Notes under the pieces: generated by a model
Databases searched by the model: none
The model's input: only the letters and a program-made list of their open reading frames with translations
What the model was told of the DNA's origin: nothing
Translations under genes and position numbers: made by a program
Shown: piece by piece, positions 512-60,537 of the stretch
Numbering within the stretch: position 1 is the stretch's first letter
Layout: every line of letters starts with the position of its first letter
DNA from: a virus
IMG/VR virus record: IMGVR_UViG_3300005393_000308
DNA length: 64,000 bases
Reading direction: 5' to 3' (one strand)

Positions 512-3500
512 TTACAGCCATTCTGGCGGCGTTACGGCAAGCGCCGTAATATCGTATGTTCCAACGCGCTTAACGGTATAGTCCGCGGGAATATCCTGCC
601 AGCGGTTTTCAACCCGGGGTATAATATCAATCGTTTTATTGACATAGATCGGCACCGAGTATTTTATCTCCGGATGATCTGCCAGCCACACCTCTATAGT
701 ATCTATAAGGTTTTCTGTCAAAGGAGCAATATAAGCAAAGACAGCTTCACCGGACACATCTGTGAGGGCCTGTTTTTTAACAAAGGAACCATGTGTACAG
801 GAGGCCGCTAGTTTTATTTCAGGCACACCTACCGTGTTGTTTTTAATTACTGTTGCTATAATTGTTAACCCTTCGCCTGCCTGGACAGTATCTCTTTCTG
901 GTAAAACCGATAGAGTTAGGCGCGCCGGTGGCGGCAGTATTGTGAGAAAAACGGTACTACGTATATTCTCGTATATGCCGGTAATCTCCAGTTTACCGGT
1001 TATATATGGTGGACTGAGGTATGCCACAGCTCGTCCGTATTCATCGGTCTTGACGGCTATTGGCCCGTTGTCTCCGATAATGACTGCTACCATTTTCTCA
1101 TCCAGCGGCCTGCCGTTTTCTGAGCTTAATAAAACCTCGATTGACACCTGTTGCAGTGAGTCTTCTTCCACTATATCCGGCTTGACAGAGATATCTATTC
1201 TGGCAGGTTTGTCGTCGCTGCGGCTGAGTACTAGAAAGCCATCGCTGAACGGAGTAAATAGAGGGTTAAGGTTTAGTCCATCCCAGTAGTGTATTCCGTC
1301 TGTCGATGTTTCATAGTAAACATTGATGGTATCGCCCGGGTTAATTCTACCGCTGTGCACTAGAATTGTTGCCCCATCTTCAGGGTTATCCAAATCAACA
1401 ATGAAGGAGTCTATGAGTCTGTAGCGCACTTCCAGTTCGTCTGCCTGCATTAATTTGAAGGGTAGTCTCAGCTTCTGCCGGCATAACTGGAACCTGTATA
1501 CGCTAAACCAACTTGTACTCCCGGCAGGTTTTATATGGATCTGCAGACTTTCCGGATCGATATCGCGGTAAGCAAGATTGATGGTATCGCTGCCGTCTCC
1601 TTGTAATATTTCTACGTTTTCTATCGAGGGTCTGCCGTTGTCGTCAAAAAACGGGGCGTAACGCAGCGGTACACTATCTGCTGTTGTGACTGTTACAGGA
1701 GCCGGCCCTGCTGGTTTGGGATATACCACCGCTGTCCAGTCATCTCTAATAGTTACTATATTGGAGGTGACTGTTTTTCTTTCAGCCGTTCGGGCTTCTA
1801 TAAATCCCGTTCCTGCTGGGTCATACCTAATCTGTATGTCCTCGGGACCAATTATTTGTTTGACGATAACACATTCCAGCCGACCGTCCCCTTTATCCTT
1901 TTCGAACCATGGCGTATGTTTAGTCAGAATAGTGTAGATATCCTCATACCCGAGGGGATGCCAGTTGCCGTCTGTCTCTACAAAACCACTAACGACCGTA
2001 TCATATATCCTCCATTTGTGTGAGCATAAATCTTCTATCGTACTGTCCTCAAAGAAGCTTGGTATCGCAATGTGCGGAATATCTATCACACGTTCATCTT
2101 CGTCTGATACCACTATACCGCGTACTGCAACTGTTATATCAGTTAAGATAGACCTTGCAGGTTTTGGGGTGCTACCTGTACGACAACTGCCGTACAGGTA
2201 GCGTTCTTCCCCACGATAATAGTAAAATCCCGAAACAGAAGCAACCCGCCAGGGCATGGTGGTTTGGCTGAGACATTTCGCCGTTACAGTGATGCAGTAT
2301 ACTCCTTTATCATCCGCCGGCTCTACTTTATCGACAACAACTTCAACGCCAGGCTGTAACGACCGGCAGATATAATTCACATCACGTAGTATCCCGTCTC
2401 TTGCTGGATCGTATTCTATGTCATATGCTGGCGAAGGTACGGTGAGAATCGCTGAAACGGTCTCGCCAAACTGCACTTCCTGTGGTGTAGTGTAATAACA
2501 TTGAGTCCCGTACCACTGTTTGCCTATTTCTTTTACGATCAGCTTTCTGCCGCTGATAATCAGTTCATCTGATTGATCTGCAGTTTGTTGTCTGCCGCTT
2601 CCGGCAAAATATGCCTCTATATTATCGTCCGTTACAATTTCAAAGGTGAAGCTTTCCGGCCTTGCCCTGGGAGTTATGGGGACATCCACTTTTACGCGTG
2701 CTCTACCGTCTACATCAACCTCATGCCACGGCCCGGTATTGCTCCATGGTTTTTCGGCTACAACTGCGTGCGCGCCTACAATAATCTCATCATGGCCATC
2801 TGTTATGATTGCGATCCGGTCACGAGGCAGTTCTGCGCCTGTGCTACCCAGTATCGTATAAATATTGTCGTCGCCGCCAGGTTTTATCACAAAGACCGGG
2901 GCCGACATGTTGTTGCTTTCTGGTATGACCACAGACGGTACTATCGTCGCTGGCGATGAGGTTGTTGCGTATCCACTTAAGTTTTTCGCCAGCGTTGCTG
3001 TCGTGTGTCCAATGACTTCGTCATTGCCAGTAGTAGTGTCGCTGTCGCTGTTTCGCCACCCTACCTCTGTCTCCTGGGATTTTGTGATATCGCTTATCCG
3101 CCATGATGATGCCTCAGTTGGCTGGTTATCTTTGCCGAGCGGCTGAAGTTCTGAGGTCCTCACCAGTGTTACGGCTTCTTCATAGGCGTACAAATGTTTA
3201 CTGAAGTTCCAGGAGGTATAGTAGCGACTTGGCCTTGTGGGATATGCCAGTACCGGCGCGTTTCCGTCCGGATCTGTTTCTACTACCCCATCGTCGCTAT
3301 GGCTGACAGCTCTGTATTCCCTGATGGAATAGGCGGTTCCCGCAAACTCTGGAGTGCTGTCTATAAATGGCGCTAGCAGCTGTGCCGCCGTCTCCGATGT
3401 CACTGTCTGGGGCGCCTCGGCGGATGCGTGCTCGTCCAGTATTCCTGTGGAGAGATTGCCTGTTTTGACGGTCAGTGTGGCATACTTGGGTTTGTATGTT

Positions 3501-6500
3501 GTTGCCGAGATACTTGCACATAGGGGCGCCGAACCGTTGGTATTCGGCAACGCCGTAATACCCGCACTGGTGAAGATGGAGTACTCCATAAGGGTACTTC
3601 CGGTTAGTCCCATCTTTCTTGCCTGCAGCTCTACTTCCGGGCAGGCAATATAACTCAGGGTGTTGCCCGTAATGTTCCATACCGTATTTGGACCGCTTAA
3701 GGCACAGGAACCTGATATAACCTGCCATACCTTGCTTAAGGCATTGCCGTTGCCGTCTATACCGTCTAACCTGCACCAGGCGCTCCAGCTGCCTGCAACC
3801 GGTGTGTCGCAGGTGTTGGCCATTCTTGTTGAGTGAGCATAGATATATCCTTCCGGCAGTGATAGTTTGAAGTTGGCAAAACACGCGCCTGCTTGAGACA
3901 TGGTGACTGGTCCAAAGCTGCCCTGTGAAATAGAACTATCCTCTACATCGCACTGAAGCATATTATTTACCCAGACACAGATGCGCTGTTGGAAAACCTC
4001 AACCTTAATCCTGTACCGCTGGTTCCATGTCCACGGATGCGGGTGAAATCCTGTCGCGAGTACTGTCTGCTGGCCGTTGACCATTTTGGCTAACTGCATG
4101 TGCGTGGGGAAGCTCAAGCCGCCGTTTACCGAACCATTATCTATCATGAAGTAGTAGAAGTTCTTTTTGTCCTGCCAGCGGAACGCTATGCCGATACCGT
4201 CGTCGTCGCCGGTGATGTTTACCCATGCTTCAGCCTCAACTGTGTAATCCCTTAAACCGAGGAAAGCATTAGGACAAAGCCCACTGAAGCCGTTCTGGTT
4301 GGCGTTATTGACCAGGGTTCCCGTAGTCTGATCATATATCCATGATCCCCTGTTGCTTGTGTCGGTGTCCCACTGGGACCACTCACCCCAGTCGCTCCAT
4401 CCGCCGGGCGAGCCAATATATGCCGCCACGCCCCTGGTTTGACCTTCCACACGGCAAGCGGTAAGGTCAAGCAGACCATAGTCTTTTTCATACCACGCTG
4501 CCATTCTGGCGTCCCGCGGCGGGGTGCTAGGTTGATCCGGCAGCCCGTAATACCACCACATACACTCATTCCGGCCATAGTTGCCATTGCCGCGCAGTAT
4601 TGGATAGGCTGTTGATCCGTTTATTGTGACCGCAAGCTCACAATCGAAACATCCTGCATCACCACCAGTGTTTTTATACCCATTGTCTACCAGCACCGCT
4701 ATCCTGTTCCTGCCTGCAGTAAGATACTGTGCAATGTCATAGGTGTAATCCCAGTAGTGCCAGCCGTGAGCATCGCTGGTTTTATCGGCTATGAGCATAC
4801 CGTTGACATATAAAGCCATGCCGTCGTCGCTGGCGATATAGATAGTAGCTGATGTGGGAGCTGTTTCCAGGTAAACGTCCTTGATAAAACAGGCTGTCGA
4901 TGGCGCAACCTCTAACACCCCGGCCGTATGTACACCCTGCTTAAAACCGTTAAACGGGGTGGAACCAAAGCGCCAACCCAGGCTTGTGAGGCACCTGAAT
5001 TCACTGAGCGGCCTGTGGCCTGCCGGTACAGCGGCGGCGGCAATAGTTGAAGCCGGCTGCGACGAAACAAGAAGTGGATTGGTGGTGGTGTGGTTTCCAT
5101 TTACTGTCCCTGATACTCTTGTCCGATGCTGCGTTAGCAGAGTATTATAGTCGCTTCTGTACCACCGTATGAAATCAAAACCATTGGGCGAGCAGGTAAA
5201 TACATTGAGAGCGCCGCCGCTGGTAACCCAGTATTTGACCGGCATTGCGCTTATTACCTTGGGGTTGCCTGTCTTAAATGTGTTGATTACCTCTGCTATC
5301 AACTCGCTGCAGGTCTTGTTGCTTTTCATCGCTGTATCCGGCCCGATACAGCCTGCCGGCGCACTTATATTGAACGATGCAGTGGAGAAAGACTGTCTGG
5401 AGGTAGAGGTCAGAGTGCTGTACGCCACAATCTTCACGTCGCCATCGTCGCTAGCAAGGTTGCCATTGCTAAGTCTGGCATAGATGCCGCTTTTAAGTGA
5501 TGGTATAAACTTATAGGATGTTATCGTGTTATAACCAGAAGTCAGGAAATTGGTCGGTAAACCAGCCTGCCCGCTGGCTATGAAGTCGGATATAATCTGT
5601 GCTATAGTCTTTGAGTCTGCTTCGGTGTAACTATTGCCGTAAGGCGCTGTAGTTTGCAGCAGGCCCGTTCCGTTCTGGCCGCTTCCGAGTGTCGTCGTAA
5701 TCGTAACTCTTGCGCGGATGTTATTTACCAGCTGAGCCAGGTTGGCGCCCCAATCATTGTTACTGATACTTATAACAGCGCCTCCCGTAGCGTTGGCCAT
5801 ATCCGGGTATGGGTAACTGTCACTCAAGTTACAGATACAGCTAAAGACGGTATTGTTGTTTTTCAGCGTATTGATGACGTTGTTAATGTCGTAGGAGCTA
5901 CTATCATCAGCATCTTCGTCTGTGAGTATAACAAAATACTTTAATGCATTAGACCGAAAGCTGTAATTGTTTAACGCAAATAAGGTAGCACTGATACCAT
6001 TCTCGATACCGCCGGTAGTGGGTATCTGTACCATTGAGGCAAACTCACTGGCGCTGGTGGTCCAGTCGCCTGTGCTGCAGGTGCGCTTGCTTGCCGACGT
6101 TTCATAGCCGACAACTGCCAACCGGTAATCAATATTATTGCTGTTCAGGCTGTTTACAAACGAGGTGGCGTTGTTAGCTACCTTGTTCATATAGGAACCC
6201 ATTGAGCCGCTGTAGTCTATAATCCAGATAATGTCGACAAGGGCGCGGTACTGAGGGTCAGTGCTTTCGTAGGTAATTTCTACCTGGTAGTTAAACGGCG
6301 TGTCCTGACCATATGTGATGTCAGCTTCGCAGTGAACCTGATAGGCATCCTGCAAAGGCGCTGCAGAGGTGTTTTCCGCATACCCCACTATATCGGCCTC
6401 AAAAGGAATTTCCATGGTGTAGCAAGCCAGGTAGTCGACATCGACCTCGACATGGTACTCCACTTCGACCGGCTGGTGTACTTCGGCAGTTACCTTAAAC

Positions 6501-10321: not shown

Positions 10322-10665
10322 GTTCCTTCCCTTCCTTTCGGAACCCCTTACGGGGCCAGTGACGGGTCCAGGCGGACTCTCCTGGACCGCTCCCCTCGCC
10401 AATGTCGCCAGCCGGTCATCTGCTCCGGCCCGTTTCGCCCACACCCCAAAGGTTGTCTGCAGCCGTAGCTTCCAGGGTCCGGGACTGGGGAAGCATCCCG
10501 GAGTGGGTCTTTAGCCTGCCAGCAACATAGCGACTTCCTTGTCTTGTCCTTCGGCTCAGCCGCTTAGGCTGGTCATAGACAGGCTTGCGGGGTCATCCCA
10601 GCAAGCCCCCGGCTTTAGCCGTGGGGTCTATGACAAGCCTCGGACTTCAGTCCAGGGTGATTGAC
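10256..10665 (-). mobile_element. Truncated IscB-type IS200/IS605 element with two stacked left ends
   Basis: GTCAATCACCCTGGACTGAAGTCCGAGGCTT (10665-10635) directly followed by GTCATAGACCCCACGGCTAAAGCCGGGGGCTTG; right end missing. Confidence 0.85.
10322..10634 (-). ncRNA. Orphan HEARO/omega RNA
   Basis: Shares GTCATAG..CTATGAC pairing, CCAGCCT, CTGAGCCGAAGGACAAG, GCTA.GTT and TTGGCGAGG blocks with the omega RNA at 43041-43302; lies directly upstream of an iscB start. Confidence 0.75.
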
Positions 10666-12073: not shown

Positions 12074-12148
12074 TTGACATACTCCCACGAATAAATTCGC
12101 GGGATTCTGGTTCATCGAAAAAAGGGTGGGCTTTTCCGGCGGGAGATT
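12074..12148 (-). mobile_element. 75-nt internally deleted TnpB-type IS200/IS605 remnant
   Basis: TTTAC then left-end GGAAAAGCCCACCCTTT; right-end hairpin ATCCCGCGAATTTATTCGTGGGAG ending TATGTCAA; intergenic. Confidence 0.65.
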
Positions 12149-16000: not shown

Positions 16001-16623
16001 ATAGTGTCGTTATAATGCATCAGGTTAACGATGTCTTCAGGTGTATACTCTGCCGGGTTGATCTCGCTGTTGAGATCGTCCTGCCTGTCCATCCGCAGAG
16101 GTTTGGTAAAGTAACATTTGCCTGGCTGGGTTGGATTAAACCATTCCGGTTTACTGCCAAGCGATCCCCTGGTGGTAACAGATGATTCCTGGGAAGTTCC
16201 GCTTCCTTCCCACTCTCCAGACTCGATAGATTGGTAGATACTCCATACGTTCTGGGCCCACGTAGCCGGATCGTCCGGCCTGTGGACCTCGCTCACGAAG
16301 GCCAGTATGGCATTGTAATTGACACCACCATACCTTCTCAGGTACATGCTTAGCGAGGCAATCCACGGCAGGCCAGTATAACACATGCTTGTCATAAGCT
16401 GTTGTTCAATACCTGCGGCCGAGGCTAAGCGTGGCCCTTTGCTTGGCACTCCAACGCCAAGAATGTATCCGTCCCTACCGGCCCCTTTTTGTCCCCAGTT
16501 GGTTTCCTGCCAACCAATAGCCGCTATAAGCTCCGGAGGGACATTATATTGGCTGCCATATTTCTCTAGGATAATCCAGTCGCTTTGCGGCACAAAGTCT
16601 GGTTTCACCAAATTATGCGGCAC
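13060..16623 (-). CDS. Tail-associated lysin/hub: N-terminal lysozyme/transglycosylase-like domain, C-terminal M23 peptidase
   Basis: ELIAAIGWQETNWG; HKGVDI, GYGNYVVIDH, YAHL, GPHLHIE; its first codons lie inside an IS remnant. Confidence 0.8.
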   Translation of the reverse strand: MPHNLVKPDFVPQSDWIILEKYGSQYNVPPELIAAIGWQETNWGQKGAGRDGYILGVGVPSKGPRLASAAGIEQQLMTSMCYTGLPWIASLSMYLRRYGGVNYNAILAFVSEVHRPDDPATWAQNVWSIYQSIESGEWEGSGTSQESSVTTRGSLGSKPEWFNPTQPGKCYFTKPLRMDRQDDLNSEINPAEYTPEDIVNLMHYNDTMYDKRGRLVQAFPTFLMMFIDEGEWVGGRKLWNNFYFYHSMVSLDIVKERGNPADLAYMELTNVYGALNHYTVPPNLTKLRTIQRLFPAITQHSLEMRRQLFKDLMIRPGARVHIRMGYSSQASGLPVVFNGTIVEVDAEEMATFVAQGDGHELLNEMLNFGPDDKTSFFNTGTEPTSIISRILAKRGIGFHLESNMLKNLIGRMIGDVPSEFGKGYSFGASSPYGIEHFGTVKKPEGPLVWGNDVATFDVLMNVYSTNIKIGELNKIWRDYAAQKSPGTQQPTQDTSTEVATNESEEPDAVGMLDDTSDAWEGIKGTKLWKMVEKEVETKIQEAVRGIEHGLDVLSSKWEETRSKIFGERNIGVWLGKKTPWDIFSIIAKCTTGYIISVVPFQFRSTFFFGLPWWPMCIKYKWTKRNVPPPANTASAGDNQTPDAVGMLDDTGAAWEGIKGLLGIRDTSKDKAVSVMSEASYECVYTTLQQFYTFSSHTDILYNSVKASARDIATNVAAIYTLGGKAVTSPVVMADWTIRADLQKTDLVDSGTVQDIIGPDMVYHYFGERIGEDRAIIFAQSHLVEKMRNMYKDNLIVRGTPSVKPYDLFYLDDTYTCMFGLAEVGKVVHSISPQTGFISMVKPDLITRHIELTEQWNRLYTHAIAAGTYVLFRVLRFMVRTRLTGGKFMEKMAVLRQNALQFAQKGKAMVTEGIEGFLNKFRDVEITADASDEVADVVRAAGMGGKLRKAMSIAGGFAKVARVTIVPALVEIAVFGLIDGLLQSIEKVFTNMNKVKIYPLMLKDKYFVAGITGSKNLVAFDEGSNDTKGSAGGSNMEYINGTAGQQALPNGMYLGAPSDRAGTVTSVFDELREPPKYNKTYRHKGVDIAFYPNNAPITAVQAGTAAKATYDAGYGNYVVIDHGENISTLYAHLSSINVSVGSTVKAGQVIGYQGNTGNARGPHLHIELIINGQQMNILPYLPPLVMGG

Positions 16624-16773
16624 CGGAAACCCCAGCGTTTACGCCTGGGGAGGAGGCGCCGCGCCCTCCCTTCGTATATCCGTATCCATCTGCCCGCTGA
16701 AGCAAGCGACAATACCTCCACCAATCATCTTCCGGCGTCGGGCGCCCCCGGCTTTAACCATGGGGTCTATGAC
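16610..16773 (-). mobile_element. 164-nt composite IscB-type remnant (left-end/right-end fusion plus deleted iscB 3' end)
   Basis: GTCATAGACCCCATGGTTAAAGCCGGGGGCGCCCGACGCCG, then GGAGG-TTG and LLQRADGYGYTKGGRGASSPGVNAGVSGAA*, matching the IscB C-terminus LLQRADGYEYAKGESGVSSPRLKTGAPDAA*. Confidence 0.88.
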
Positions 16774-40937: not shown

Positions 40938-41480
40938 TTATTGGATTACTCTCGAATTAAATGGATATGGATATTTCTTCCCGCCGCGTATAGCAGGCAG
41001 AATTCCAAACTCTTCCCGCAATCTCGACTCCCAATAGGCAACCTCCTGCTTCAAGTTGGCATAGGCTATGTTAAGCTCATCCCTTAAAAGCGCGGGGCGC
41101 CTCTCTACAGACAGGTCTGCCAGTTTCTGAACCACAGTATCGCGCCCCTTGTACGTCACCTGGCGCATCCTGGTCAGCAGGACATCGTAAGCCGCCTTGT
41201 AGCGGGTATATTGACGCATGGGAAGCGTTGGTATCTCAGGTATCTCTTTATTTACACGCTCTAGGATGTCGTTGCAAATGAGACTCGCCTGGACAAGGAA
41301 GCGCAGGCTGGTTACCCGATCCAGTTCCTCTTCTGTGAGACCAGTGTCTATCAATAACTGCTCGTAGGAGGAGTACAGCGGCGAGCACTTCGTGACAAAC
41401 TGCCAGGTAAACGTCCCGGAAGGGGTGGTAATGCTTAACTCATAGACCTGGTTTTGTTTCAGTAGAGACATGGTCGTCAA
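40938..41480 (-). CDS. Head-tail adaptor-like protein
   Basis: 180 aa helical; PLYSSYEQL..; position in the neck cluster. Confidence 0.5.
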   Translation of the reverse strand: MTTMSLLKQNQVYELSITTPSGTFTWQFVTKCSPLYSSYEQLLIDTGLTEEELDRVTSLRFLVQASLICNDILERVNKEIPEIPTLPMRQYTRYKAAYDVLLTRMRQVTYKGRDTVVQKLADLSVERRPALLRDELNIAYANLKQEVAYWESRLREEFGILPAIRGGKKYPYPFNSRVIQ

Positions 41481-41719
41481 CCTACCTTGAACATCAACTC
41501 GGCACCGGCCGGGAGCGGTTCATTAAATCTCACCGTCCGGCTGTCGACCTCTATGTAATCGAGAACCGGATAAGCCCTGAGTCCGTTAACATATACTTCA
41601 AGAGCACCACTGTCGGGGGTATATGTCAATTCGTTTAGTGTAAAGCCGGTCTGCCCTTCGGCGCTTACGGCATATTCTCTGGCGTTTTTAACACCTGCAC
41701 GTCTTAACACAATAGCCAC
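41477..41719 (-). CDS. Small virion protein (single beta-sandwich module)
   Basis: 80 aa; LEVYVNGLR..YIEVDSRTVRFNEPLPAG, similar to the 9565-10119 repeats. Confidence 0.55.
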   Translation of the reverse strand: MAIVLRRAGVKNAREYAVSAEGQTGFTLNELTYTPDSGALEVYVNGLRAYPVLDYIEVDSRTVRFNEPLPAGAELMFKVG

Positions 41720-41722
41720 AGG

Positions 41723-43027
41723 TTACGCGGCGTCGGGAGCCCCCGTCTTTAGACGTGGGGAGGAGACGCCACTCTCTCCTTTCGCATACTCGTATCCGTC
41801 TGCCCGCTGTAACAGATGCAGGTACTTTGGGTGGACGTCGAAACCGTTGAGCTCGAAGCTTGGGCGAAACCGGATCGCGACACGACCGATATGCATACCG
41901 GCATGTTTACCGTTTGGGATCAGCGCTTTCACCAGATCACCGGTGCGGTAGCCCATGAACCGCTTTGCCCGAGGCGCATGCCGGATTGGGAAGCCGTATT
42001 TGTCCGTCCCGCATCGCTGGCGCTTTCCGTATCCCTTGGCGGTTATTTGCAGCACTTGCCGCGGAAGGATCAGTCTATCCGGGGTGCTAGCTCCGACACA
42101 GGCGGCATCTATCCAGTGGGCTTTCGGCAGTCCCAGTCGAGTTCGGTTGTATTTGGTGCGGCCACCAGTTCCAACTTCAATGGGGATGTTGAAGCCGGTC
42201 AGTCTGCGATACAACTCCCAGCGCGTGGCGTTAACGGCCGCCGCGTCTTTCAGGGGAATCCGCGCCCTGGCCTGCACTTCGGGATAGCCAAACTCCTCCG
42301 CCGTCCGGTTCCCCTTGGCCTGGTTGCAAGCACGGCAGGCCAGCGTTAGATTAGACACCCGGTTGCTGCCGCCGCGGCTCTTGGGAACGATGTGCTCGAT
42401 CTCCAGCGGCACGTTCTCCGCGCCGCAGTACGCGCAGCGGCGTCCCCATTTCTCCAGCAGATACTCTCGGACTTCATAGCCGAAGAGCTCGCCCCGCTGG
42501 TACTCCACGCCAGCGATCTCCGGGGTCTGGAGCGCTTGCGTATCGAACCGGACCAGCTCCACCGACACCGCCGCTGCGGGCGCATATCGCTGTAGACGAT
42601 CCACCCAGGTCAGTACGTTCGCAACCCGGCTCACCAGCGACGGCGGCAACCAGCCCTCCGGCCGGCGGCGGTTGTCGAAGCGCGGCTTCCGGTGGCGCGT
42701 TTTGCGATTCCGCCGTGCGCGTCGCAATGCTCTGCGCTCCAGGAGCCTGCGCTTAACCTGTTCACCCCGGTGCTCGACCTCTGCCGCCCATATGATGCGG
42801 TTAGTGTCTTCACACACGAGGGCCAGCCCCGTCACCTTGGAGCCGGGGTCGATCTTGACCCGGTGCGGGTGGACGATCGATCCATCCAGCGTCCGATCTC
42901 TGAGAATGATGGTGAACGGGTAACGGCGAAAAACCGCAGCCCTGCCGGAGCGCAGGAGTTGCCGCGCTCTGGCCGGGTGACAAGGATCAAGCGGCTTTTT
43001 GTCCCTATCCAACACGAATACTCTCAA
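41723..43027 (-). CDS. iscB: RNA-guided endonuclease IscB (PLMP/RRXRR, split RuvC, HNH)
   Basis: 434 aa; KPLDPCHPARARQLL, KIDPGSKVTG, RRALRRARR, VELVRFD, CAYC..EHIVPKSRGGSNRVSNLTLACRACN, HWIDAAC. Confidence 0.95.
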   Translation of the reverse strand: MRVFVLDRDKKPLDPCHPARARQLLRSGRAAVFRRYPFTIILRDRTLDGSIVHPHRVKIDPGSKVTGLALVCEDTNRIIWAAEVEHRGEQVKRRLLERRALRRARRNRKTRHRKPRFDNRRRPEGWLPPSLVSRVANVLTWVDRLQRYAPAAAVSVELVRFDTQALQTPEIAGVEYQRGELFGYEVREYLLEKWGRRCAYCGAENVPLEIEHIVPKSRGGSNRVSNLTLACRACNQAKGNRTAEEFGYPEVQARARIPLKDAAAVNATRWELYRRLTGFNIPIEVGTGGRTKYNRTRLGLPKAHWIDAACVGASTPDRLILPRQVLQITAKGYGKRQRCGTDKYGFPIRHAPRAKRFMGYRTGDLVKALIPNGKHAGMHIGRVAIRFRPSFELNGFDVHPKYLHLLQRADGYEYAKGESGVSSPRLKTGAPDAA

Positions 43028-43040
43028 GCAAATACCTCCT

Positions 43041-43302
43041 TACGTCGGCTTTCTCGGGTTTCCCCGGTCAAGTGAGCCTCGCCAAGGTTATCCCGGCTTT
43101 TGCATCCAGCACACTGGCTTCAACCCCGTATGCCTGTTTAATGCCGGACGACAGAGCCTGGAGCTGGCTCGCGCACCCCAGGGTGTCGTGACCGGGATAA
43201 CGTAGCATCCTCGTCGCCTTGTCCTTCGGCTCAGATGCTGAGGCTGGTCATAGCCGAGCTTGCTTGTAGCAAGCCCCCGACTTTAGTCGTGGGGTCTATG
43301 AC
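43041..43302 (-). ncRNA. HEARO/omega RNA of the intact iscB element
   Basis: About 260 nt between the left end and the iscB RBS; GTCATAG/CTATGAC pairing, GCTACGTT, CCAGCTCCAGGCTCTG, CCTTGGCGAGG blocks. Confidence 0.85.
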
Positions 43303-43305
43303 AGA

Positions 43306-44376
43306 TCATACCTCCGAGATCAGGAGGCCGAATTTGTGCTCCGTGATCGGCACATACGGCAAATCGGCCGGCCGCTCAATCTTTAACCAGAATGTTTTGA
43401 CCCCGTAAGGTTCCAGCACATCAATAGTTACACTCTCTGCATATTCTCCGGGCGTCCCGTCTACATCCGGCGCAAACCGCACCCACTCGTAGCCGTGATA
43501 ACCGTGGTACATAATTCCCCTGACGACAAGTCCGCTGATAGCAGTGTCGGATGGGTTTTCTATCTCAAGTTTCTTCTTGATAAAGCCTCCCTCCAGCGGA
43601 CCGAGGCTGGTTTCAAGGCTGTAATCCAACAGGTTTCCGTCGAGATAGACGTTAAGGTTCAGCATGTTGTACCAGTAGATATTGCCACCGGCAATGGTCG
43701 TAAGCCCGGTAGATGCCAAAAGAATTCCACCAGCATCGCGCAGTTCAATCGTACCATCGAAGATCAGAGCAGTCTGAGCCGGCAACACCGCTGTCCCGTT
43801 GATGACGCCGGCCAAACAGATTGGCTGGCCCGCACTGTCGTACACGATCGCAGTCGCACCTGCCGGCGCGTTGCCTATATAAATACGGTCGTCCTTTGTT
43901 AGGGAAAACCTGCTAACTATGGCCGTAGATGTTCCTTCTGCGTACAATCCAAGTGTCATGTCGGGTGATACAAAAGCAGTGCCTATTATCTCCCAGTAGC
44001 CTTTTGCGCTTGAGCAGCCGTATGCCTCGCAGCGGTCATTAACCGCTTTTATACGGAGTCGCTCGTACGGGTCTCCACCTGTTATCACAGAAAGGTAAAG
44101 GGCATCGTCAGGCGACGCCCACAGGGTAAGGCCGGCGCCGTCATCCGCGCCGGCCGGACTGTACTGTACCTGCACTTCGCAGACATACGGCTGCTTAATA
44201 GAAGAGCAAAGAGCCAGGATCGCTCGTCCACCATTCGCGGCAGGGTTCATAAACAGGCCGCCTGAACTAAAAACAAAACAGTCTTTCTTGTTAGGCGAAA
44301 GCACAAAACTGCCATCGTCGATTGAAAGGTCAGTGGTATAAATAAGCCCGCTTTCAATCAGGTCAATCCTGGCCAT
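43306..44376 (-). CDS. Virion protein with ConA/beta-sandwich-like domain
   Basis: 356 aa, beta-rich; YSPAGADDGAGL. Confidence 0.45.
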   Translation of the reverse strand: MARIDLIESGLIYTTDLSIDDGSFVLSPNKKDCFVFSSGGLFMNPAANGGRAILALCSSIKQPYVCEVQVQYSPAGADDGAGLTLWASPDDALYLSVITGGDPYERLRIKAVNDRCEAYGCSSAKGYWEIIGTAFVSPDMTLGLYAEGTSTAIVSRFSLTKDDRIYIGNAPAGATAIVYDSAGQPICLAGVINGTAVLPAQTALIFDGTIELRDAGGILLASTGLTTIAGGNIYWYNMLNLNVYLDGNLLDYSLETSLGPLEGGFIKKKLEIENPSDTAISGLVVRGIMYHGYHGYEWVRFAPDVDGTPGEYAESVTIDVLEPYGVKTFWLKIERPADLPYVPITEHKFGLLISEV

Positions 44377-58881: not shown

Positions 58882-59523
58882 CTAACGGCCTAGCAATCTC
58901 AACAACCTATCCAAAACAACTGCCAGCTGTGCCCGCGTCACTGGATCCTCCGGCCGGAAGTTGCCGGCCTCATCCCCTTTTAAGAGGCTCAACTGGGCCA
59001 ACCTGTCAATAGATTCCTTGGCCCAGTGACTGTTTGGAACATCAGGGAACATTCCTGTAATTACCTCCTTGACTACATCGACCGGACCTTTACCGGCCTT
59101 GATTTCTTCCAGCGGATAATACCGCCCAGGACAGGCTGTGGCATTTAACTCTCTATGCCCTACGACACGCGCGCCCGGGTAAATCTGTTTAAGTTCCTCT
59201 ACCAATTCTAGAATTGCCTGCCACTGCTCTGGAGGCATTGATTCGTTTTCATAATCGCCCTCGGCGCAGATACCAACAGAGATGCTGTTATATCCCTGGC
59301 AGTGTGCGCCTATAGCCTCGCGCGGCCGGCCGCGGTAGATACTGCCGTTTTTACGGACGTAGTAATTGTAACCACAACCAGACCAACCGTTAGCAAGATG
59401 CCAGCGGTGGATATCCTCAACCGACGCCTGGGCCGCCTCAGCGTGGTGCAGGACAATATAGCTGGTTTTGGAACGATAACTCAGGGGCCCGTTAAATTTG
59501 AGGCCCACCTCGATTATCTGCAC
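58882..59523 (-). CDS. Endolysin: N-acetylmuramoyl-L-alanine amidase (Amidase_2) plus SLH domain
   Basis: Likely GTG start at 59523 after GAGGAGG; IVLHHAEA, GYNYY, GAHCQGYNSISVGIC, GHREL..CPG; FPDVPNSHWAK..FRPEDPVTRAQ. Confidence 0.9.
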   Translation of the reverse strand: MQIIEVGLKFNGPLSYRSKTSYIVLHHAEAAQASVEDIHRWHLANGWSGCGYNYYVRKNGSIYRGRPREAIGAHCQGYNSISVGICAEGDYENESMPPEQWQAILELVEELKQIYPGARVVGHRELNATACPGRYYPLEEIKAGKGPVDVVKEVITGMFPDVPNSHWAKESIDRLAQLSLLKGDEAGNFRPEDPVTRAQLAVVLDRLLRLLGR

Positions 59524-59869
59524 TTGCAGGCACCTCCTCGACAGATTCTCCTGCGACAGGTTGCTGACAATAGTAGTTATTGTACGGTATTTGCTCGGCT
59601 GGGCTGATATTGCTCCGCCTCGACCACGGTAGCGGCAGATAGCCGAGAGACTTGCCGCCAACAGCAATCAACAGCGGGTAGCTGACGACAAGAAAGAAGT
59701 CCACCTGGTTGCCGCTTAGTTCATTAGCCAAAGCAAGTTTGATAGCCACGTACATCCATATAGGGAGAACAACCACGACAACTACGTCTGCCAGGCTCCA
59801 GCCGTCCGCATCGTTCCACCACCCGCGCGCAGCAACAGACTTTATAGAAGCTGAAAACCTCTTCAGCAC
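59492..59869 (-). CDS. Two-TM membrane protein in the lysis cassette
   Basis: 125 aa, two hydrophobic helices. Confidence 0.55.
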   Translation of the reverse strand: MLKRFSASIKSVAARGWWNDADGWSLADVVVVVVLPIWMYVAIKLALANELSGNQVDFFLVVSYPLLIAVGGKSLGYLPLPWSRRSNISPAEQIPYNNYYCQQPVAGESVEEVPASADNRGGPQI

Positions 59870-59872
59870 TTA

Positions 59873-60127
59873 CTACTCACCACGCCTGGCTCGCTCCAAC
59901 AGTTCCTCCAGCATAGCCTGCTGGCGGGTAAGCGAAAGCTCCATTGCCCTGAGACAGTCTGTCAGCTTCTCAAGGGCAGCAGTATTGTTCTGAATTAACT
60001 CGTTCAGGTTGCGCTGCCCGGCAAACTGGCTGATAACGTAACCCACCAGACCTATCGCCAGAGCGGCAACGCCGTACTGGGCTAATTCGGTCAGCTGCAA
60101 ACACCACACCCCATTTCTGTTTGGCAA
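59873..60127 (-). CDS. BhlA/UviB-like holin
   Basis: One N-terminal TM helix then coiled coil LIQNNTAALEKL. Confidence 0.55.
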   Translation of the reverse strand: MPNRNGVWCLQLTELAQYGVAALAIGLVGYVISQFAGQRNLNELIQNNTAALEKLTDCLRAMELSLTRQQAMLEELLERARRGE

Positions 60128-60537
60128 TCAGCCGTCCTTTCTATTACTTGCAACTGGCTGCTGTGCGGCCGCAGGATATCTTTTATTACCTGGTAGGCAA
60201 CCCAGGCCTTGCCTTCGTAACCACAGGTAAATATGTCTACTGCAGCATAACCATACTCCGGCCATGTATGAACGGACAGGTGGCTCTCGGCCAAACCGAC
60301 CACTACGGTAGCGCCCGGATGGAGAGTACGGGCGACAACACCTATAACCTGCATGTTGGCCCTCTTGGCGGCCGCAAGAGCCACCTTCTGGAGCCATTCA
60401 TGTCCTTCGGGCAAATACTGACAGCGATTGAGATCTGCAACAATATGGGTACCCACCCGCTGCCGCACAACAAACCACCTCTTTTCTGTTTGATTATCCG
60501 GCCTTAAACAATGCGGCACTTGGCAATGCCGTAACAA
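60091..60537 (-). CDS. speD: S-adenosylmethionine decarboxylase proenzyme (pyruvoyl type)
   Basis: GTHIVADL, GATVVVGLAESHLSVHTWPEYGYAAVDIFTCG; true start probably near 60500. Confidence 0.9.
   Translation of the reverse strand: MLRHCQVPHCLRPDNQTEKRWFVVRQRVGTHIVADLNRCQYLPEGHEWLQKVALAAAKRANMQVIGVVARTLHPGATVVVGLAESHLSVHTWPEYGYAAVDIFTCGYEGKAWVAYQVIKDILRPHSSQLQVIERTADCQTEMGCGVCS

Follow-up and report, generated by a model that had tools for sequence, protein, structure and literature searches.

How can a phage gene be cut off from its ribosome-binding site by a mobile element without obvious loss of the gene? The question is raised by a locus within a 64,000-nucleotide (nt) stretch of the IMG/VR virus record IMGVR_UViG_3300005393_000308, here called the window, which is part of the phage genome and in which all genes lie on the minus strand. 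At positions 43302-41720 (minus strand, as for all window features below unless noted), a 1,583-bp element made up only of an omega RNA and the gene for an IscB nuclease stands between the Shine-Dalgarno (SD) sequence and the start codon of an 80-amino-acid (aa) virion-module gene. It is a complete non-autonomous IscB unit (ISC type) of the IS200/IS605 superfamily of insertion sequences (IS). Taken as a whole, the locus is quite probably explained by an IscB element that entered by way of a TnpA transposase, homes, and is tolerated through translational coupling. The locus is useful as an uncluttered natural example of a transposon with an RNA-guided nuclease in an essential, densely packed phage operon.

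The upstream 356-aa gene (44376-43306) ends ...CTCGGAGGTATGA, with its TGA stop at 43308-43306, 3 bases before the element starts at 43302. The SD sequence of the 80-aa gene, GGAGG (43311-43315), lies over the final codons of this upstream gene, and the element separates it by 1,583 bp from the GTG at which the 80-aa gene (41477-41719) begins. The preliminary description of this locus had proposed that deletion of 43302-41720 restores a normal translation start, and this was reproduced exactly: the deletion yields ...CTCGGAGG TATGATCT/GTGGCT, that is, GGAGG-TATGATCT-GTG for the 80-aa gene. The empty site would have a canonical SD sequence, an optimal spacing of 8 nt and then GTG; this GTG is the first possible start of the gene, because an in-frame TGA lies two codons upstream, and it agrees with the N-terminus of the homologous ORF135 of Bacillus phage 0305phi8-36. 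With the element in place, GCG TAA CCT stands before the GTG, and there is no SD sequence. As had also been described, the gene starts 3 nt after the iscB stop (TAA at 41725-41723, then CCT, then GTG at 41719). With the stop of iscB so close and no SD sequence present, the 80-aa gene is probably translated by coupling to iscB termination.

The element itself has the anatomy expected of its family. Its omega RNA scaffold (43067-43302) belongs to the HEARO family (Rfam RF02033); it begins GTCATAGA, scores 137.4 bits (E=1.8e-28; gathering score 83) and covers model positions 1-211, the full length. The omega RNA side is the transposon right end in published work, and here the match begins at exactly base 43302, where the preliminary description had placed the element boundary. 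A sub-terminal hairpin (43294-43274) lies within the omega RNA, 8 nt inside this 5' boundary. An AGGAGG SD sequence (43035-43040) stands 7 nt ahead of the TTG start (43027) of the iscB coding sequence (41723-43027; 434 aa). The left end in TnpA terms (41720-41760) consists of the hairpin CCCCACGTCTAAAGACGGGGG (41760-41740) and a 20-nt linker ending in CCT; it is coding, and doubles as the C-terminal tail of IscB. The 21-nt hairpin CCCCACGNCTAAAGNCGGGGG is present at both ends of the element, with 19 of 21 bases in agreement between right and left, an arrangement that is the architecture of IS200/IS605 ends. In the reconstructed locus, both ends have sub-terminal imperfect palindromes, without terminal inverted repeats and without target duplication. 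The guanine-plus-cytosine (GC) content of the element (60-67%, against about 50% in the flanks) indicates a foreign origin.

The nuclease is intact in sequence. IscB contains the Pfam domains RRXRR (1.4e-71, residues 3-179) and HNH (7e-14, residues 198-241), and matches IscB chains in the PDB from TbaIscB (3e-47) down to OgeuIscB (3e-29). The RuvC and HNH motifs, reported as intact from inspection of the letters, proved to be so on alignment to those of OgeuIscB: the six catalytic residues (RuvC I D60, RuvC II E157, RuvC III H304 and D307, HNH H212 and N235) all fall in columns that are at least 96% conserved among 28 homologues. No tnpA is present inside the element, again as first stated, its space being taken by the omega RNA and iscB, and none of the 26 open reading frames (ORFs) tested in the window matches Y1_Tnp (PF01797). 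Absence of tnpA is usual: no more than about 1.5% of iscB genes have a tnpA in their vicinity. Other classifications were rejected: an autonomous IS605/ISC2Y element, for want of a Y1 tnpA inside; a CRISPR-associated Cas9 relative, given the IS ends and the HEARO omega RNA; and an IStron (a group I intron joined to IS605), as a whole-window Rfam search at gathering scores returned two HEARO matches and one tRNA, and no ribozyme.

The four bases beside the left end, GTGG (41716-41719; CCAC on the plus strand), are the putative target-adjacent motif (TAM) of IscB and the putative target motif of TnpA, and their GTG also starts the 80-aa gene. The preliminary description had given as known that IscB uses a 3' TAM, reported as ATGA for some orthologues. 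Published TAMs agree with the flank: that of GstIscB, TTCAT, is ATGAA on the iscB strand, and the same motif is used by TnpA (Meers et al., 2023, PMC10055086); that of DtIsrB is preferentially NTGA/TTGA, the A at position 4 being recognised by a Gln. Three flanks had been listed for IscB-type ends in the window, GTGG (41719), GTGA (16608) and ATGA (16728); all read as given, although ATGA is a weaker witness, bordering a fused 45-nt mini-element in a remnant. The flank was then read across relatives with at most 67% identity, comprising 39 IscB loci from IMG/VR and 80 from GTDB genomes, in which omega RNA starts were located with Rfam and each right-end hairpin was aligned to the region after iscB. 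Of the unique loci, 21 have a clear left-end hairpin, and in 18 of these the motif RTGR (R, purine) follows it at a distance of 12-26 nt, against 30% of background windows (p=2e-7). The commonest flank in the clade is ATGA(A); GTGG flanks the window element and L041, L043, L044, L050, L053, L069 and L075, and ATGG flanks L021, L047, L051, L054 and L057. The ends of the elements from Ammonifex (L057) and Alicyclobacillus (L053) are near-identical to those of the window element. That of Ammonifex starts GTCATAGA followed by the hairpin and ends ...CCCGACGCCGCGTGATTTG directly before ATGG, and the left-end architecture recurs in L057, L053, L011, L016 and others.

The C-terminal, TAM-interacting region of IscB varies together with this flank. 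In an alignment of 28 IscB elements (window numbering 340, 348, 388, 389, 397 and 403), position 397 is Asp in 13 of 13 xTGG elements and mostly Gln in xTGA elements, and position 388 is mostly Arg or Lys in the former versus Ser or Thr in the latter. Position 389 is Pro where the fourth base of the motif is G and Gly where it is A. All eight GTG-flanked elements have Ile348 and Gly340, versus mostly Arg at both positions in ATG-flanked ones. The window IscB carries the GTGG-type set (G340, I348, R388, P389, D397 and L403), which argues that GTGG is its cognate motif and no degenerate accident; a role for GTGG as TAM would be in line with both the clade-wide RTGR and the published TAMs. The first base after the left-end hairpin, read for the DNA-guide rule of TnpA, is T with xTGA and C with xTGG in five of six clean cases, which is suggestive only.

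The predicted guide would be encoded by the 16-nt flank CTCGGAGGTATGATCT (43303-43318), directly 5' of omega RNA position 1. Guides derived from outside transcription by read-through have been described for IscB (Meers et al., 2023, PMC10055086), and the element is co-oriented with the upstream 356-aa gene, with no terminator found between them, as guide production of that kind requires. A guide aimed elsewhere in the window was rejected, the guide sequence being unique there, with no second match at up to 3 mismatches. Searches for a sibling phage or an empty site gave no match by megablast of 4.3 kb against INPHARED, none through the neighbouring 356-aa and 180-aa proteins in IMG/VR, and none in a scan of JGI metagenomes; among 5.8 billion proteins, the 356-aa protein matched only itself. 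The exact 23-nt empty-site pattern was absent from metagenome and viral contigs, as was the occupied-junction pattern from viral contigs. With neither sibling nor empty site in the searched collections, homing of the window element is inferred from published work on IscB and TnpB.

A scarless natural empty site was found only for a relative in Ralstonia phages. A tblastn search located IscB in 30 INPHARED records, mostly labelled 'HNH endonuclease' or hypothetical. One of these, phage Adzire (L121, NC_054462), has an element with IscB and omega RNA at 2188-3915, running from GTCAACCA... to ...GCAGACTG. In phage Bakoly (L123, NC_054463), whose flanks are 99% identical to those of Adzire, the site at about 2201 is empty and reads ...CGGACGGTGT joined directly to ATGAGAAAAAAG (ATGAG). 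The Adzire guide matches the Bakoly site exactly, and the insertion is scarless and lies 5' of ATGA. This junction supports the boundary rule applied to the window element. The same element, at 99% identity, occurs at another locus in a second genus (phages Heva, Claudette and Alix). Public data therefore already hold phage-borne IscB elements that are polymorphic for presence and absence, and Adzire and Bakoly, as cultured siblings, make homing in co-infection directly testable, where a 2026 review of OMEGA systems treats it as theoretical.

In the published model for these elements, TnpA excises and pastes the element, the IscB-omega RNA complex cuts the vacant donor joint, and recombination restores the element; the same review extended this to co-infecting phages as 'non-restorative homing', and gene drive by TnpB has been shown in plasmids. 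The window element has, to judge from its sequence, every part that the model needs. By analogy, a Y1 TnpA acting in trans, from the host or another element, would have pasted the single-stranded DNA element beside CCAC (GTGG on the iscB strand), which would have happened to be the GTG start and one further base of the 80-aa virion gene; because the target motif was a start codon plus one base, the insertion fell between the SD sequence and the start codon. Read-through from the 356-aa gene would then give an omega RNA that carries, as its 5' guide, the final 16 nt of the upstream flank. The IscB-omega RNA complex would cut uninterrupted junctions (a guide match followed by GTGG), whether in excision products or in element-free genomes that co-replicate or co-infect, and repair of the cut by recombination with an occupied copy would restore the element or copy it. 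As the iscB reading frame extends across the left end and stops 3 nt short of GTG, terminating ribosomes can probably re-initiate there, so that expression of the virion gene would be kept despite the lost SD sequence. TnpA entry, cleavage, homing and coupling are all proposed for this locus.

The window also holds traces of further insertions: counting the intact element, its minus strand bears three right ends (43302, 16773 and 10634) and has a left-end hairpin at two places. A second, decayed copy (10322-10634) retains a full-length omega RNA (103 bits) and about 22 IscB codons, its left end being lost. Its omega RNA shows 76% identity to that of the intact element and has hairpin changes that compensate one another, and the intact IscB (43027-41723) could in principle load this orphan RNA in trans. 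Downstream of the copy lies a 184-aa gene paralogous to the 80-aa one (45% identity, E=2e-16). A third, composite remnant (16609-16773) comprises the 45-nt fused-end mini-element, the iscB ribosome-binding site and TTG start joined to the last 30 or so codons, and a left end. It is found at the junction of a 577-aa and a 1187-aa gene and supplies the TAG stop of the 577-aa ORF (CAG TCA TAG). A boundary placed before GTGA would give ...TCC CAG TGA, in which the stop of the 577-aa ORF overlaps the GTG start of the 1187-aa ORF; a register shifted by one base would fuse the two ORFs in frame. Separately, a hairpin on the plus strand (12083-12103; TCCCACGAATAAATTCGCGGG) in a gap between ORFs has 2 mismatches to the IscB end-hairpin pattern and lies on the strand opposite to the IscB ends; it may derive from the end of some other IS or may resemble the pattern by chance.

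Several points weigh against the proposed account. The two other copies have decayed, so that elements of this family evidently die in this genome. No matching TnpA source was identified for the element, the window being part of the genome. GTGG departs from the commonest flank, ATGA, at two positions, and the co-variation of C-terminal residues with the flank is confounded by shared ancestry. The boundaries rest on family conservation together with the SD-start reconstruction, and the junctions have a 4-nt microhomology (CT/GT on both sides), so that the ends cannot be read from the window locus alone. On this last point, the GTCA start common to the Rfam model and to all relatives fixes the ends, and the empty-site product is identical in every register of the microhomology. 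As to TnpA, genomes with related elements carry Y1 TnpA elsewhere, and the Ammonifex genome has four such genes. An IS605 in Ammonifex thiophilus (L128, 1347-3224) combines tnpA (Y1_Tnp, 1e-38) with a convergent 437-aa tnpB and has an end hairpin, CCCCAGGCTTAAAAGCCGGGG, roughly similar to the IscB-element hairpins of the same genome (L057); its TnpA is a candidate trans-acting TnpA, a lead and not evidence.

The decay of two of the three window copies would also suit a recent passive passenger, that is, a fresh and still intact IS that does not home in the phage, its guide not being made or processed or its IscB being mistimed, and that is headed for decay. The strong GC contrast, which suggests recent arrival, and the lack of a known element-free target fit as well. 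We nevertheless consider this unlikely: neither the ORF, nor the omega RNA, nor either end has decayed, the late gene upstream runs in the same direction with no terminator in between, and homing or gene drive is an established activity of related nucleases. Another explanation is that IscB is kept mainly as a co-opted weapon, giving the phage an advantage over element-free competitors in co-infection, as has been shown for the intron-encoded endonuclease of phage PhiPA3. The concept is discussed in the 2026 review, and identical IscB elements do occur in two genera of Ralstonia phages that share hosts. This seems quite improbable for the window element, whose guide targets only a near-identical sibling junction and whose sister copies were left to decay; nothing, moreover, separates such a weapon from ordinary selfish homing. 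That the SD-start reconstruction is a coincidence, with the element in fact ending, or the 80-aa gene in fact starting, elsewhere and the element simply lying in an intergenic spacer, might draw on the shared CT/GT and on a second in-frame GTG 9 nt downstream, but is highly improbable given the family-wide GTCA start, the GGAGG at an optimal 8 nt with an in-frame TGA two codons upstream in the empty site, and the same split of SD sequence from ATG in two viral contigs (L016 and L019).

The place of the element at a start codon leads to a broader claim of the preliminary description, namely that a start-codon-like TAM steers these elements to gene boundaries. Empty sites were reconstructed for 26 elements and compared with 3,802 control RTGR sites. 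Under a strict test, which asks for an ORF of 80 aa or more whose first possible start is the RTG, six of the 26 qualify (the window, L019, L047, L051, L053 and L054), against 3.4% of controls (p=2e-4); under a loose one, in which an ORF of at least 80 aa starts at RTG, 12 of 27 do, against 25% of controls. Other relatives have inserted at stop codons, in intergenic DNA or amid short ORFs; in two of them, L058 and L077, a long upstream ORF ends on the TGA of the ATGA flank. The tendency of RTGR to fall at gene junctions is thus real but partial. The part of the claim that stands is that RTGR holds across the clade and that gene starts are enriched; steering itself is not established, as purifying selection on RTGR-restricted insertions would yield the same enrichment by itself, which makes targeting inseparable from selection.

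Some of these elements also appear equipped to sustain the gene that they displace. The left ends of L019 and L024 carry GGAG or GAGG 6-9 nt before the flanking ATG, and in five elements (L024, L057, L059, L061 and that of the window) the iscB stop overlaps the flanking start or lies no more than 3 nt away, which suggests that the downstream gene is translated through the supplied SD sequence or through coupling. One may tentatively see in RTGR, a start codon plus purine or a stop/start overlap (ATGA or GTGA), a 'safe-harbour' strategy at the junctions of transcribed operons, where read-through would provide the guide and the downstream gene would be kept by coupling to the iscB stop or by the SD-like motif of the left end, although we would rather doubt it than assert it. 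If true, it would be a DNA-level counterpart of the way in which IStrons stay harmless through splicing. The papers searched did not mention the gene-junction tendency, nor the wider rule that some 27 relatives suggest, in which an RTGR beside the left end co-varies with the C-terminal domain of IscB and coincides with gene starts or stops far more often than random RTGR sites do. The junction pattern is a side result of modest novelty, as may be the coupling by way of the left end. In one relative, from a metagenome-assembled genome of Poribacteria (L071), the IscB element (1606-3187) lies between a cobalamin riboswitch (1263-1456; 114.5 bits) and the ATG of a 552-aa ORF, a position that would let the riboswitch govern transcription of both the omega RNA guide and iscB.

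The neighbouring genes indicate the kind of phage involved. The 356-aa protein resembles ORF132 and a 519-aa sheath protein resembles ORF137 of Bacillus phage 0305phi8-36 (26% and 29% identity, respectively). The 80-aa and 180-aa genes jointly correspond to ORF135, the 80-aa product having a domain that is also found in the N-terminus of ORF135 and in the 184-aa gene of the window, and a 167-aa gene corresponds to ORF136. Two further window genes, at 58882-59667 and 60091-60537, encode between them an Amidase_2-SLH endolysin and an S-adenosylmethionine decarboxylase-like protein (AdoMet_dc, 2.4e-26). The endolysin points to a Bacillota host, and its SLH domain to one with an S-layer. The best explanation of this gene content is that the element sits in the late virion structural operon of an uncultured giant myophage resembling 0305phi8-36, with a Bacillota host.

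The element itself is ordinary biology: IscB elements, omega RNAs, TAM logic and a role in homing have all been published. The structural reference is OgeuIscB, the HEARO ORF (PDB 7XHT and 7UTN; RF02033), which has the same domain order, catalytic motifs and omega RNA family. Its similarity to the window IscB is distant (E of about 3e-29 over two stretches), and its TAM is NWRRNA, not RTGR. Another close parallel is ISGst5 of Geobacillus stearothermophilus (Meers et al., 2023, PMC10055086), likewise a non-autonomous IS200/IS605-type element with the omega RNA upstream of iscB and bounded by the right end. Its guide too is derived from the flank by read-through, and its TAM is the TnpA target motif beside the left end, as we infer for the window element. 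The window element differs from ISGst5 (TTCAT) in its GTGG flank and the matching differences in the IscB C-terminus, and in its position in a phage structural operon, where it splits an SD sequence from its start.

The Ralstonia phages Adzire, Simangalove and Elie (NC_054462), Heva, Claudette and Alix resemble the window in having a phage-borne IscB and HEARO RNA with GTCA...hairpin ends. Their IscB is 49% identical to that of the window, and their element is present or absent between 99%-identical siblings beside an ATGA flank. They differ in belonging to another phage family with a Pseudomonadota host, in their TAM (ATGAG), and in the location of the element: it does not split an SD sequence from a start but is inserted where an unannotated reading frame ends, just ahead of a terminator-like hairpin. 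A functional parallel is provided by the free-standing Seg and Mob homing endonucleases of phage T4, agents of intronless homing, whose genes are likewise wedged between conserved phage genes. Like them, the window IscB would be expected to cut element-free siblings in co-infection and to be copied by the ensuing repair; unlike them, the window element would recognise its target by an RNA guide and a 4-nt motif and would tell self from non-self by the presence or absence of the insertion, and it has transposon ends.

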